Source: a virus (Duplodnaviria > Heunggongvirae > Uroviricota > Caudoviricetes). From it: a DNA stretch of 10,855 nt. Made by a program: the position numbers and the translations under genes. The notes beneath the pieces were generated by a model. That model was not told the DNA's origin and made no database searches. It was given only the letters and a program-made list of their open reading frames with translations. Position 1 is the stretch's first letter, and each line of letters starts with the position of its first letter. Shown in pieces: positions 698 through 10,689 of this stretch. Location: IMG/VR virus record IMGVR_UViG_2537561727_000012, one strand, 5' to 3'.

Positions 698-1060
698 GGG
701 GCTGATTCTGGATTCGACGGGATTTGCGAAACCCAAGGTGCATGCCGAGGGGCGGTTGGCCTCGTAAAAAGCCGCAAAAAATAGTCGCAAACGACGAAAA
801 CTACGCTTTAGCAGCTTAATAACCTGCTTAGAGCCCTCTCTCCCTAGCCTCCGCTCTTAGGACGGGGATCAAGAGAGGTCAAACCCAAAAGAGATCGCGT
901 GGAAGCCCTGCCTGGGGTTGAAGCGTTAAAACTTAATCAGGCTAGTTTGTTAGTGGCGTGTCCGTCCGCAGCTGGCAAGCGAATGTAAAGACTGACTAAG
1001 CATGTAGTACCGAGGATGTAGGAATTTCGGACGCGGGTTCAACTCCCGCCAGCTCCACCA
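698..1060 (+). ncRNA. ssrA: tmRNA (transfer-messenger RNA, 363 nt)
   Basis: Starts GGGGCTGATTCTGGATTCGACGG and ends GGGTTCAACTCCCGCCAGCTCCACCA (tRNA-like acceptor/T-arm with encoded CCA). An internal tag reading frame at 787..819 (gca aac gac gaa aac tac gct tta gca gct taa) encodes ANDENYALAA-stop, the enterobacterial degradation tag. Confidence 0.93.
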
Positions 1061-1070
1061 AATAAATCAA

Positions 1071-1100
1071 GGGGTTACGTGAAAGCGTAGCCCCTTTTTC
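1071..1100 (+). terminator. Intrinsic terminator downstream of ssrA
   Basis: GGGGTTACG (1071..1079), loop TGAAAG, CGTAGCCCC (1086..1094): a 9-bp stem with one G-U pair, followed by TTTTTCTTT. Confidence 0.55.
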
Positions 1101-1118
1101 TTTGGTAGTGGCGGCAAA

Positions 1119-1157
1119 ATGGCGACAGACTTTTGCGTCCATCTTGCCTGTCGCCAT
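1119..1157. repeat. Perfect 10-bp inverted repeat ATGGCGACAG-N19-CTGTCGCCAT upstream of the cargo gene
   Basis: Arms at 1119..1128 and 1148..1157 are exact reverse complements. It sits 27 nt upstream of the ATG at 1184 and just upstream of its Shine-Dalgarno sequence. Candidate operator or 5'-UTR stem-loop. Confidence 0.5.
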
Positions 1158-1183
1158 CTTGAAATCATGCAAAGAGGTTTCAC

Positions 1184-1666
1184 ATGGAAGAACTTCACTT
1201 TGTTTACATCAATGCAAATGGTCGTATCGGTGTTCACTCTATACAGAGCATCAGTTATAGCGAAAATCATATACAGGGCATTTGTAAGAACACCGATCGA
1301 ATAAAAACCTTCCGAAAAGACCGCATTCTTAAACAGTACGATTCACCAGAACAAGCCATTCAGGAATGCGCGTCATTCCTCCCCGAAAGCTACTCACATC
1401 TCACTAAGCAGTCTGGTCCGAAAAAAAATACATTCGATGTGTGTTTCACCGGATTTAAGAAAGCAGATAAAGAAAGATTGGTTGATAAGGCGAATGAACA
1501 AGGATTAACGGTAAGAACCTCTGTAACCCAAAGCCTTCAGATGCTCTGTTGCGGTTACAATGCAGGCCCATCAAAAGTATCTGCAGCCAGGATGAAAGGC
1601 ACAATCATCATAGATGAGCCTGGCTTTATACATTTTCTTGAAACGGGTGAGATCCCAGATGAATAA
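1184..1666 (+). CDS. Hypothetical cargo protein: N-terminal WYL-like domain fused to C-terminal BRCT-like domain
   Basis: 160-aa ORF with a good Shine-Dalgarno (AAAGAGG, 1171..1177) 6 nt before the ATG. Residues ~5-50 (FVYINANGRIGVHSIQSISYSENHIQGICKNTDRIKTFRKDRI) match the WYL-domain pattern ending in R-x-F-R-x-D-R-I. Residues ~84-155 (FDVCFTGFKKADKERLVDKANEQGLTVRTSVTQSLQMLCCGYNAGPSKVSAARMKGTIIIDEPGFIHFL) align by eye to the C-terminal BRCT domain of NAD-dependent DNA ligase LigA. The gene is visibly more AT-rich than its flanks. Domain calls are from memory, not a search. Confidence 0.6.
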   Translation: MEELHFVYINANGRIGVHSIQSISYSENHIQGICKNTDRIKTFRKDRILKQYDSPEQAIQECASFLPESYSHLTKQSGPKKNTFDVCFTGFKKADKERLVDKANEQGLTVRTSVTQSLQMLCCGYNAGPSKVSAARMKGTIIIDEPGFIHFLETGEIPDE

Positions 1667-1692: not shown

Positions 1693-1911
1693 TCAGAAAT
1701 TCATATGCCCCTGACCACCTGGCAATGGATGTGGAGGAGCAGTAGCAATCAGTGCGGGTGTCACAATAAACCGGACCACTGTTTCATGGGTAACAAAAGT
1801 GCTCCCGCAGTTAATATTTTGGCACTGGCAGTAACGCTCTTTGGTGCTTTCAGTTACTTGAAAACTGCTCCTTGTGTGTGCCGCATGACCACACTTTGGA
1901 CAATTCATCAT
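1693..1911 (-). CDS. ogr: Ogr-family zinc-finger late-gene transcriptional activator
   Basis: The 72-aa product from the internal ATG (MMNCPKCGHAAHTRSSFQVTESTKERYCQCQNINCGSTFVTHE...PHPLPGGQ) has the Cys-x2-Cys...Cys-x4-Cys motif and the length of P2 Ogr / P4 Delta. The ORF-track start at 1956 is a GTG and adds 15 non-conserved residues; an AGGGA Shine-Dalgarno precedes the ATG at 1911. Confidence 0.85.
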   Translation of the reverse strand: MMNCPKCGHAAHTRSSFQVTESTKERYCQCQNINCGSTFVTHETVVRFIVTPALIATAPPHPLPGGQGHMNF

Positions 1912-8959: not shown

Positions 8960-9526
8960 TCAGGGGGATTCACTGCTCTTATTTGCCGGAAATTTTCTAT
9001 AAATGGTAGAAACGCCCACATCAAAAATCAGTGCAATACGCTGTCTTGATTCTCCGGCCTCTAGTAAACGTCCAATCTGTGCCCACTGTTCGGTGGTCAA
9101 CTTAGGACGGCGTCCACCTACTCTGCCTTTGTCGCGAGCTGCAGCAATCCCCGCTCTGGTACGTTCAACTATCAGTTCGCGTTCCATTTCAGCCAGGGCA
9201 CCCATGACATGAAAAAAGAAACGGCCCATTGGGGTACTGGTATCAATACTGTCAGTCAGGCTTCGGAAATTCACGCCACGCTGGCGCAACTCTTCTATCA
9301 GCGTAACAAGATGCCGCATACTGCGTCCCAACCTGTCCAGCTTCCAGACAACCAGCGTGTCTCCTGCCGATAGTGTCCTGAGTAGTTTTTTCAGCCCCGG
9401 TCTGTCGGACTTAGTGCCACTGATTTTGTCCTCAAAAATCCGCTCACATCCCGCGCAGTTCAGTGCATTACGTTGCAAATCGGTGTTCTGGTCATTTGTT
9501 GACACGCGTACATAGCCAATAAGCAT
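8960..9526 (-). CDS. Serine DNA invertase (Hin/Gin/Pin/Cin family)
   Basis: Translation from the third Met (MLIGYVRVSTNDQNTDLQRNAL...GDTLVVWKLDRLGRSM...C-terminal HTH) closely resembles e14 Pin and Mu Gin, with the catalytic Ser in YVRVSTNDQ. The ORF-track start at 9532 adds MI; the 9526 ATG has the better Shine-Dalgarno spacing. Confidence 0.9.
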   Translation of the reverse strand: MLIGYVRVSTNDQNTDLQRNALNCAGCERIFEDKISGTKSDRPGLKKLLRTLSAGDTLVVWKLDRLGRSMRHLVTLIEELRQRGVNFRSLTDSIDTSTPMGRFFFHVMGALAEMERELIVERTRAGIAAARDKGRVGGRRPKLTTEQWAQIGRLLEAGESRQRIALIFDVGVSTIYRKFPANKSSESP

Positions 9527-9553
9527 GATCATTCCCCTGAATAAAAACCGGAG

Positions 9554-10087
9554 ATGATGCCAGTTAGCTGTTACCTCTGCATTTTCTTAAACGTTGGTTT
9601 GGGAGAAGGCTCTGCATTACCTGTTGGTGTGCCTGTTCCGTGGCCTTCCGCCACTCCGCCGACAGGCTGGCTGAAATGCAATGGTGCGGCTTTTTCTGCT
9701 GAAGAATACCCGGAACTGGCAAAGGCTTACCCGACAAATAAATTGCCTGATTTACGCGGTGAGTTTATTCGTGGCTGGGATGACGGACGTGGAGTGGATA
9801 ACGGAAGGGGATTATTAACGCTTCAGGACGGTGCGATTGTCAGTCATAACCACTATTGGGGAATCTGGACTTCACGAACTAACGACCAGACTCTGGAAAG
9901 TTTTACAGGCACCACGATTTTAAAACAAATCACGCCCCTGTCTCCGGCCATTGACTTCGATAATTACCCAATTCCCAACCCGGCTATTACAGAGGGTGGT
10001 GTTGTTGCGGCAACGACTAAACCTGCAGGTGCGAATGAAACACGCCCACGAAATGTCGCTTTTAACTATATTGTGAGGGCTGCATAA
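9554..10087 (+). CDS. Tail-fibre C-terminal variable segment, alternative (currently silent) cassette
   Basis: The translation (…PVGVPVPWPSATPPTGWLKCNGAAFSAEEYPELAKAYPTNKLPDLRGEFIRGWDDGRGVDNGRGLL…RPRNVAFNYIVRAA) is typical of the receptor-binding C-terminus of Mu S / P2 H-type fibres. It is on the opposite strand to the late operon and has no constant N-terminal part, so the first ~18 codons of the ORF (spanning the crossover site) are probably not native. It would be fused to the constant part after inversion. Confidence 0.7.
   Translation: MMPVSCYLCIFLNVGLGEGSALPVGVPVPWPSATPPTGWLKCNGAAFSAEEYPELAKAYPTNKLPDLRGEFIRGWDDGRGVDNGRGLLTLQDGAIVSHNHYWGIWTSRTNDQTLESFTGTTILKQITPLSPAIDFDNYPIPNPAITEGGVVAATTKPAGANETRPRNVAFNYIVRAA
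9582..9607. other. Candidate invertase crossover site (hix/gix/pix-like 26-bp imperfect palindrome)
   Basis: TTTTCTTAAACG-TT-GGTTTGGGAGAA has the AAAC(C)-nn-GGTTT centre of Din-family sites. It lies between the invertase start and the beginning of the fibre variable segment, the position gixR occupies in Mu. Confidence 0.4.
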
Positions 10088-10689
10088 TGAATAACGCAGA
10101 ATTAAACAGTGAATTAATTGCCACTATGGCAGGAGAAATTACTGTTTATAACTTTGATGTCATGAGTCGGGAATATATTTCAGCTTCAACTGAATATCTT
10201 GCTATTGGTGTCGGCATTCCGGCATATTCCTGTTTAGATGCCCCAGGCGCATACAAAGCTGGTTATGCAATCTGCCGATCTGCAGATTTTAACTCATGGG
10301 AATATGTGCCAGACCATCGCGGTGAAATCGTCTTTAGCACCGAAACAGGAGAATCAAAAGAAATCACAGCTCCGGGTGATTACCCTGATAATACAACCAC
10401 TATCGCCCCGTTAACGCCATACGATAAATGGGATGGTGAGAAATGGGTGACAGATACTGAGGCACAGCATAATGCCGCAGTAGACGCGGCAGAAGCACTG
10501 CGCCAGTCACTTATTGATGCAGCAATGGCTTCCATTAGTCTGATTCAACTGAAACTACAGGCCGGACGGAAGCTGACGCAGGCAGAAACCACCCGACTTA
10601 ACGCTGTGCTGGATTACATTGACGCGGTGACGGCAACAGATACCAGCACCGCGCCGGATGTCATCTGGCCTGAACTGCCGGAGGCGTAG
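10087..10689 (+). CDS. Tail fibre assembly protein (Tfa / Mu U / P2 G family), alternative cassette
   Basis: 200-aa ORF whose ATG overlaps the stop of the fibre segment (TAATG). The conserved N-terminal part and variable C-terminus are typical of tail-fibre assembly chaperones. Confidence 0.85.
   Translation: MNNAELNSELIATMAGEITVYNFDVMSREYISASTEYLAIGVGIPAYSCLDAPGAYKAGYAICRSADFNSWEYVPDHRGEIVFSTETGESKEITAPGDYPDNTTTIAPLTPYDKWDGEKWVTDTEAQHNAAVDAAEALRQSLIDAAMASISLIQLKLQAGRKLTQAETTRLNAVLDYIDAVTATDTSTAPDVIWPELPEA

Follow-up and report, generated by a model that had tools for sequence, protein, structure and literature searches.

The ssrA end of the prophage

The window, by which we mean the whole stretch of DNA analysed (10,855 nucleotides, IMG/VR record IMGVR_UViG_2537561727_000012), runs through smpB, ssrA, a hairpin, the inverted repeat under study, a gene that we refer to as the cargo gene, ogr, gpD, gpU, gpT and onward. 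To the right, the DNA belongs to a P2/186-like (Peduoviridae) prophage, of which it forms the ogr-side end, integrated in the 3' end of ssrA. The features surrounding the repeat are listed below in window coordinates.

1–483: smpB
698–1060, plus strand: ssrA (tmRNA), the 3' end of which is the integration target (ARAGORN, tag ANDENYALAA; Rfam RF00023, 295.8 bits)
1016–1062, plus strand: att core, 47 bp common to the phage attP and the ssrA 3' end (Fels-2 attP annotation and alignment)
1065–1077, plus strand: possible IHF site AATCAAGGGGTTA, matching WATCAANNNNTTR, the sole match to that consensus in the window
1069–1101, plus strand: terminator-like hairpin with a T run (terminator scan; 12 pairs followed by the T run)
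1109–1116, plus strand: predicted arm-type site 1, TGGCGGCA (minus-strand 11-mer TGCCGCCACTA, 9/11 against YAYCGCCAYTY)
1119–1128, plus strand: left arm of the repeat, with predicted arm-type site 2, TGGCGACA, at 1120–1127 (minus-strand 11-mer TGTCGCCATTT, 10/11 against the same consensus)
1134–1146, plus strand: putative degenerate inverted copy TGCGTCCATCTTG, 6/8 against the arm-type 8-mer (direct reading, compared with 186-like arms)
1148–1157, plus strand: right arm of the repeat, with a predicted inverted third copy, TGTCGCCA, at 1149–1156 (11-mer TGTCGCCATCT, 9/11 against the consensus)
1184–1666, plus strand: cargo gene, 160 amino acids, WYL-like beta domain and BRCT domain, not part of the recombination site
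1668–1685: hairpin between the convergent cargo and ogr genes (terminator scan)
1693–1911, minus strand: ogr/B-like late-gene activator (Pfam Ogr_Delta, E = 1.3e-20; coordinates as annotated in phage 500465-1, which is 98.5% identical)

The boundaries of the core follow from the Fels-2 record, in which attP is annotated as 33670–33693 joined to 1–23; position 1 of Fels-2 aligns to window position 1040, so that the 47-bp core corresponds to 1016–1062. All window DNA to the right of the core is phage DNA, and the repeat therefore falls in an arm of the attachment site, which the ogr/B-like gene marks as the ogr-side arm of attP. In the free phage genomes of Cartapus and MLG42 this core is likewise present, with int to one side of it and the cargo gene to the other. 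The interval from core to arm sites, in which the possible IHF site falls, contains an IHF footprint in phage 186; the site is a weak candidate since Fels-2 and MLG42 read AAACAA at this position. In the prophage the hairpin at 1069–1101 follows ssrA, whereas in the circular phage it follows the int operon, and a lysogenic-operon terminator is predicted at the equivalent position in phage 186. The second hairpin (1668–1685) corresponds to the one that follows ogr in Fels-2 and is likely to be a terminator acting in both directions.

Past ogr the minus strand encodes gpD, gpU, the tape measure, the tail tube and the sheath, followed by a Hin-like invertase. This Hin/Cin-like serine invertase (8960–9532, minus strand) adjoins ORFs past the sheath gene, including one at 9554–10689 on the plus strand, and inverted repeats lie near it (10103–10115/10136–10148); together these could constitute an invertible tail-fibre switch of host range.

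The cargo gene belongs to a family of proteins of ~160 amino acids found across Enterobacterales, 23 of 26 members of which match Pfam BRCT and four of 26 WYL. Its AlphaFold2 model (pLDDT 91) shows a five-stranded beta domain at the N-terminus and a BRCT domain at the C-terminus, the best Foldseek matches being the DNA-end-binding BRCT domains of RFC1 and LigA. The protein matches phrog_2561, and PADLOC reports a weak similarity to the C-terminus of the candidate defence protein PDC-S48 (E = 1.8e-7), which does not establish a role in defence. Phage records call the gene 'DNA ligase' or 'exonuclease'; it encodes a single BRCT domain and no catalytic domain.

The repeat and the arm-type motif

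Direct reading places the left arm, ATGGCGACAG, at 1119–1128 and the right arm, CTGTCGCCAT, at 1148–1157, separated by 19 nt, exactly as the first-pass annotation had described. Allowing one mismatch, a repeat search extends the match to 14 nt (1115–1128 against 1148–1161; 13/14, or 93% complementarity). The distance of 14 nt given there between the end of the right arm and the Shine-Dalgarno sequence is also borne out (AAGAGG at 1172–1177, ahead of the cargo ORF start at 1184).

The same annotation held that such a dyad was unlikely by chance in a short region. This is correct for the 121-nt stretch 1063–1183, where only ~0.5% of dinucleotide shuffles contain a perfect 10-nt dyad, but does not extend to the window as a whole, for which 0.49 perfect 10-nt inverted repeats with a loop of up to 40 nt are expected per shuffled window and at least one occurs in 30% of shuffles. 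The repeat is real and locally non-random, while a bare dyad considered over the whole window is unremarkable. Two other perfect 10-nt inverted repeats are present within coding sequences, one in the cargo gene (1226–1235/1288–1297) and one in gpD (2164–2173/2205–2214), consistent with the chance expectation for the window.

What makes the repeat non-random is the identity of its motif; the mere existence of a dyad does not. The 8-mer TGGCGRCA, present in both arms, occurs at 1109–1116 (plus), 1120–1127 (plus) and 1149–1156 (minus); the window holds seven copies against 1.3 expected, three of them inside 48 nt, and an exact third copy arises in the 55 nt past the first two in ~0.2% of shuffles. 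In the RefSeq record of phage 186 (NC_001317.1), the feature at 20889..21147 is described as 'predicted Int arm-type recognition sequences; consensus YAYCGCCAYTY; 3 sites to left of attP and 2 sites to right', and Nilsson et al. (PMC3448106) give the 186-type arm consensus as tgccGCCActt, the reverse complement of which is aagTGGCggca. On these two independent sources the 8-mer is the 186-type integrase arm-type recognition sequence, making the three copies predicted arm-type sites. The CGCCA core is exact in all three, which sit 47–95 nt beyond the att core. Sites 1 and 2 form a tandem, TGGCGGCA-aaa-TGGCGACA, with a period of 11 bp, that is, direct repeats one helical turn apart.

Between the tandem and the right arm lies a further stretch, TGCGTCCAtcttg (1134–1146), at a 6-nt gap from the tandem; this is the position of the inverted third site of 186-like phages, and it lies 15 nt before TGTCGCCAtcttg. 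It may be a degenerate inverted arm-type copy, although the resemblance is weak. The direct repeat CCATCTTG, found 14 nt apart at 1139–1146 and 1153–1160, is common to this stretch and to the right arm, and falls within a longer match between 1134–1148 and 1149–1163 (10/15 positions). Such similarity hints, weakly, that the perfect inverted copy may have arisen by a local 15-bp duplication.

The tandem recurs on the other side of the core in relatives of this prophage, whose own int-side arm lies outside the window. Cartapus, which is 97.7% identical across the query including the repeat, has the int-side tandem ATGGCGACAtttTGGCGGCA; Yersinia phage MLG42, ~70% identical in the cargo region, has ATGGCGGCActtTGGCGGCA; and Fels-2, which is 97.8% identical over window positions 1040–1128 only, has ATGGCGGCAtttTGGCGGCA. 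All three thus carry a tandem on both sides of an ssrA-type core. The window's int likewise lies outside the stretch, and in these relatives the Int protein is ~55% identical to that of phage 186 and carries W11, E14 and Y16 at N-terminal discriminator positions; W, E and Y at three N-terminal positions have been proposed as discriminators of 186-type arm sites (PMC3448106). In Cartapus a RES-domain gene separates int from the arm, and the arm sites stay with the core and not with int.

Conservation with the attachment site and with the cargo gene

A scan of IMG/VR for the tandem returned at least 120 stretches, which we pooled with the loci of cargo homologues. The cassette itself is present in ~170 complete E. 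coli genomes. Among the matches listed and these loci, at least 84 distinct sequences, in about 40 kinds, lie downstream of the tandem. Within the close clade of the window (19 haplotypes from 82 loci) none of the 16 tandem columns varies (0/8 in site 1 and 0/8 in the core of site 2), compared to 5/19 columns in the spacer, 3/10 in the right arm and 5/26 in the next 26 nt. With sites 1 and 2 invariant, and ahead of so many kinds of downstream sequence, the left arm behaves as a constrained att element, conserved independently of the cargo and whatever its neighbours. The right arm is polymorphic and confined to one close clade. Its three variants (1150 G>A, 1153 G>A and 1156 A>C) each break a pair of the dyad without compensation and damage the arm-type consensus, and one left-arm variant likewise breaks pairing uncompensated.

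Arms that lack cargo, in which the ogr terminator follows directly, have a direct third copy 11–13 nt past site 2 in all nine kinds among the matches listed, despite diverged spacers. Among cargo-bearing and other arms the third copy is absent from 28 of the 31 kinds listed, direct in two and inverted in one, the last being the type of the window. The third site appears dispensable on this distribution, since so many of the cargo-bearing and other kinds do without it.

Cargo homologues with ~70% protein identity retain an intact tandem, and at the position of the right arm they read CT(G)TAGCCGT, two substitutions away. Upstream of these homologues we found no comparable inverted repeat, the best being of at most 7 nt and located elsewhere. 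The right arm was found only in the clade whose cargo is at least 96% identical, and is absent in MLG42, a phage isolated on Yersinia pestis EV76-CN. As far as these alignments tell, the right arm is neither linked to the cargo nor visibly constrained, and the lack of any sign of purifying selection, given that its columns vary much as those of the spacer and the downstream sequence do, speaks against a role for it.

Directly past arm site 2 lies a hotspot for cargo, with about 30 unrelated sequences found there among the matches listed (e.g. window 1129–1666; L206, 2590–3400; L006, 1060–1470; L005, 1152–2357). Cargo at this position includes a reverse-transcriptase gene in E. coli 5735 and, in Klebsiella phages, a gene starting MKKSLLMLLLLASCNVFA that, read from the DNA, looks like a small secreted protein or lipoprotein and for which the Klebsiella phage record annotates a shorter hypothetical ORF. 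The RES-domain gene of Cartapus is an instance of cargo on the int side as well.

Further copies of the arm were seen away from intact ssrA genes. Many E. coli chromosomes contain a decayed and unannotated version of the stretch from the ssrA 3' end through hairpin and arm (...tagTGGCaGCAaaaTGGttgtag), for example near ypjA/ypjC in E. coli Ecol_224 (L205, 3000–3080). Found at the distal end of the ssrA island and truncated within site 2, it resembles the remnant of an earlier Fels-2-like integration, or else a secondary att site. In one IMG/VR contig (L054/L131) a degenerate copy of the ssrA 3' end, ctccgccagcccaccaaataaatc, replaces the intact ssrA ~70 nt upstream of the tandem, next to the same prophage arm and cargo, which suggests integration at a distal pseudo-att site.

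Proposed integrase arm sites and alternative explanations

We propose that the arms of the repeat are probably two of three copies of a 186-type Int arm-type site, located in the ogr-side attP arm of a Fels-2/186-like prophage in ssrA. Confidence differs between the two arms: it is very likely that the left arm is an Int arm site, while for use of the inverted copy in the right arm by Int the chances are roughly even. The proposal draws on the identity of the motif, its position within an att arm, the layout of the sites, their 11-bp phasing, the invariance of sites 1 and 2 and the recurrence of the tandem on the int side, all of which can be read directly from the sequences compared. Binding of the window's sites by Int would follow by analogy, and is a prediction even for phage 186. 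Heterobivalent tyrosine integrases are described as binding arm sites through a separate N-terminal domain, with IHF bending the DNA between arm and core (PMC3448106 and established background). On the model of lambda, P2 and 186, the arm sites would be contacted by the small N-terminal domain of Int and the core in ssrA bound and cleaved by its C-terminal domains, while bends induced by IHF would let Int bridge arm and core to form the intasome for integration and excision. The suggestion in the first-pass annotation that the repeat could be the binding site of a dimeric regulator is thus partly upheld, in that a protein-binding site is probable, but the predicted protein (Int) and the purpose are different.

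A less likely alternative is that only the left arm functions, as Int site 2, and that the right arm is a neutral by-product, leaving a dyad with no function of its own; on this view the right arm, travelling with the cargo cassette, might have been duplicated in this lineage alone or be what remains of an ancestral inverted third site in decay. Polymorphism of the right arm at the rate of its neighbours, with three uncompensated variants, fits such neutrality, as do its absence at the ~70% cargo homologues (CT(G)TAGCCGT), the lack of a third site in 28 of 31 cargo-bearing and other kinds among the matches listed, and the hint of a local 15-bp duplication given by the direct repeat at 1139–1146/1153–1160. 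Against neutrality, only ~0.2% of shuffles place an exact arm-type 8-mer in these 55 nt, the match to the complement of site 2 extends over 13 of 14 nt, an inverted third site is conserved in 186-like arms, and the cargo-less ssrA-type arms listed all keep a third site.

The other explanations give the dyad a role in expression. The first-pass annotation had remarked that it lies where a promoter or operator for the cargo gene would be, and its position, 26 nt ahead of the start codon and 14 nt ahead of the Shine-Dalgarno sequence, invites interpretation as an operator; moreover, in some elements recombination directionality factors and att-proximal sites also control transcription (reviewed in PMC7498355). 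Under this interpretation a dimeric regulator would bind the dyad, whether the cargo protein itself, the prophage repressor, Apl/Cox, or Int in a second role. However, a sigma-70 scan of 600–2200 found no promoter between the ssrA hairpin and the cargo start (1097–1183), where only poor −35/−10 hexamers can be picked out by eye, and neither arm tracks the cargo: the left is conserved whichever cargo follows and the right is not kept with cargo homologues. The cargo protein was rejected as the regulator on its domain content (WYL-like and BRCT, with no helix-turn-helix), contrary to the earlier suggestion that it might bind the repeat, and Apl/Cox sites were rejected because their phage 186 counterparts lie on the int side of attP and not on the B/ogr side. 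The only other regulator encoded adjacently is Ogr, a zinc-finger activator of late promoters. We therefore consider an operator improbable. A related idea, which we rate as very improbable, would combine the arm sites with control of the cargo: Int occupying both site 2 and the inverted site, whose centres are 29 bp apart, would loop or occlude the cargo leader, the third copy being a lineage-specific gain with a second use and cargo expression being coupled to Int occupancy. If so, expression of the WYL-BRCT cargo (e.g. by read-through from ssrA) would follow the integrated or excising state of the prophage.

A stem-loop in RNA, earlier offered as an equally good reading for the 5' UTR, now seems extremely improbable. 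Its sense-strand form would belong to the cargo 5' leader, for instance in read-through from ssrA, while an antisense form would shield ssrA as a weak terminator. The minus-strand fold has a free energy of −31.8 kcal/mol (z = −3.9) with a 16-pair stem followed by UUUUG, and the dyad is part of the minimum-free-energy fold of the sense strand. Yet the sense fold is unexceptional (z = −1.6), and the antisense stability comes only from a G-U extension of the same dyad. The three right-arm variants and the one in the left arm break pairs with no compensation, the ~70% cargo homologues have no equivalent, and a 19-nt loop with a run of four U is atypical of intrinsic terminators, none of which the terminator scan found here. 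Rfam at gathering thresholds matched tmRNA only.

If the repeat is made of integrase arm sites, as we propose, it is probably a routine component of phage integration rather than a switch for the cargo, and a mis-annotation is avoided, as a dyad that looks like an operator ahead of a prophage cargo gene belongs to the arm of the attachment site. The analysis also provides a usable map of ssrA-type attP (core, possible IHF site, hairpin, tandem arm sites and a variable third site). Cargo cassettes in these phages start directly past arm site 2, usually displacing the third site, which helps to delimit prophage cargo and to engineer their integrases. Should the third site truly be optional or indifferent to orientation, this would bear, incrementally, on how the 186-type intasome is built.

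Comparison with phage 186 and other attachment sites

In the attP stretch of phage 186 (L204) exact matches to the arm consensus occur at 880–890 (minus), 898–908 (plus), 909–919 (plus), 1127–1137 (plus) and 1138–1148 (plus), and a sixth lies inside int, giving six in 5 kb against 0.15 expected. The B/ogr-side arm of phage 186 thus has a tandem with an inverted copy 7 nt further out, and the int-side arm has a tandem. We infer that the '3 sites to left' of the phage 186 annotation include the inverted one, because the exact consensus matches fall in this way and the start of the feature coincides with the 5' base of the minus-strand site.

Inverted third copies are not confined to phage 186. 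Sixty loci in the IMG/VR scan have a tandem with an inverted copy within 3–19 nt. About 45 of these are 186-like arms consisting of a hairpin, TGGCGATA-aaa-TGGCGGTG, a 5–8-nt spacer, TACCGCCA and the ogr terminator, with varied spacers and flanks, and one (L247) is an ssrA-type arm. Gaps of 22–40 nt were found at 32 loci, which is near a rough chance level, with several AT-rich att-like families among them; the control pattern ACCGCYRY (the reversed motif) overlaps TACCGCCAC and found the same loci again, and only its ~25 new loci bound the expectation by chance. An inverted third site is, from these matches, a normal variant of the predicted 186-like arm architecture, in which the 21-nt gap of the window is unusual compared to the typical 5–8 nt.

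The closest relatives by attachment site are the ssrA-integrating Felsduovirus members Fels-2, SopEPhi and RE2010, which share with the window the 47-bp core, the hairpin and the tandem. BLAST homology to all three runs up to 1128 and no further, which is precisely where the left arm ends. Fels-2 lacks an inverted repeat because its third copy, TGGCGGCA, is direct, 11 nt past site 2, and it has no cargo gene. The attachment sites of lambda (P1, P2 and P'1–P'3) and P2 (Int arm sites tgTGGaCa) embody the same concept of short repeats in the attP arms away from the core, but their recognition sequences are unrelated to those of the window and the number, spacing and orientation of the sites differ.

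The order of elements in the window is that of phage 186: core, IHF match, hairpin, tandem, inverted third copy and, with the cargo gene intervening in the window only, ogr/B. Phage 186 and ssrA-type attP are alike in having CGCCA with its flanks, an 11-bp-phased tandem on each side of the core and an Int with the same type of N-terminal domain, although the arm sites of phage 186 are themselves predictions and not footprints. They differ in the core, which is tRNA-Ile (ileY) in phage 186 and the 3' end of ssrA in the window; in motif position 2, which is A in phage 186 and G in all ssrA-type sites; and in the distance from site 2 to the inverted copy, which is 7 nt in phage 186 and 21 nt here. 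Arm-type sites of P2/186-like integrases were already known, and an inverted third copy is implied by the phage 186 annotation; what the window adds is a further arm of this kind with wider spacing.
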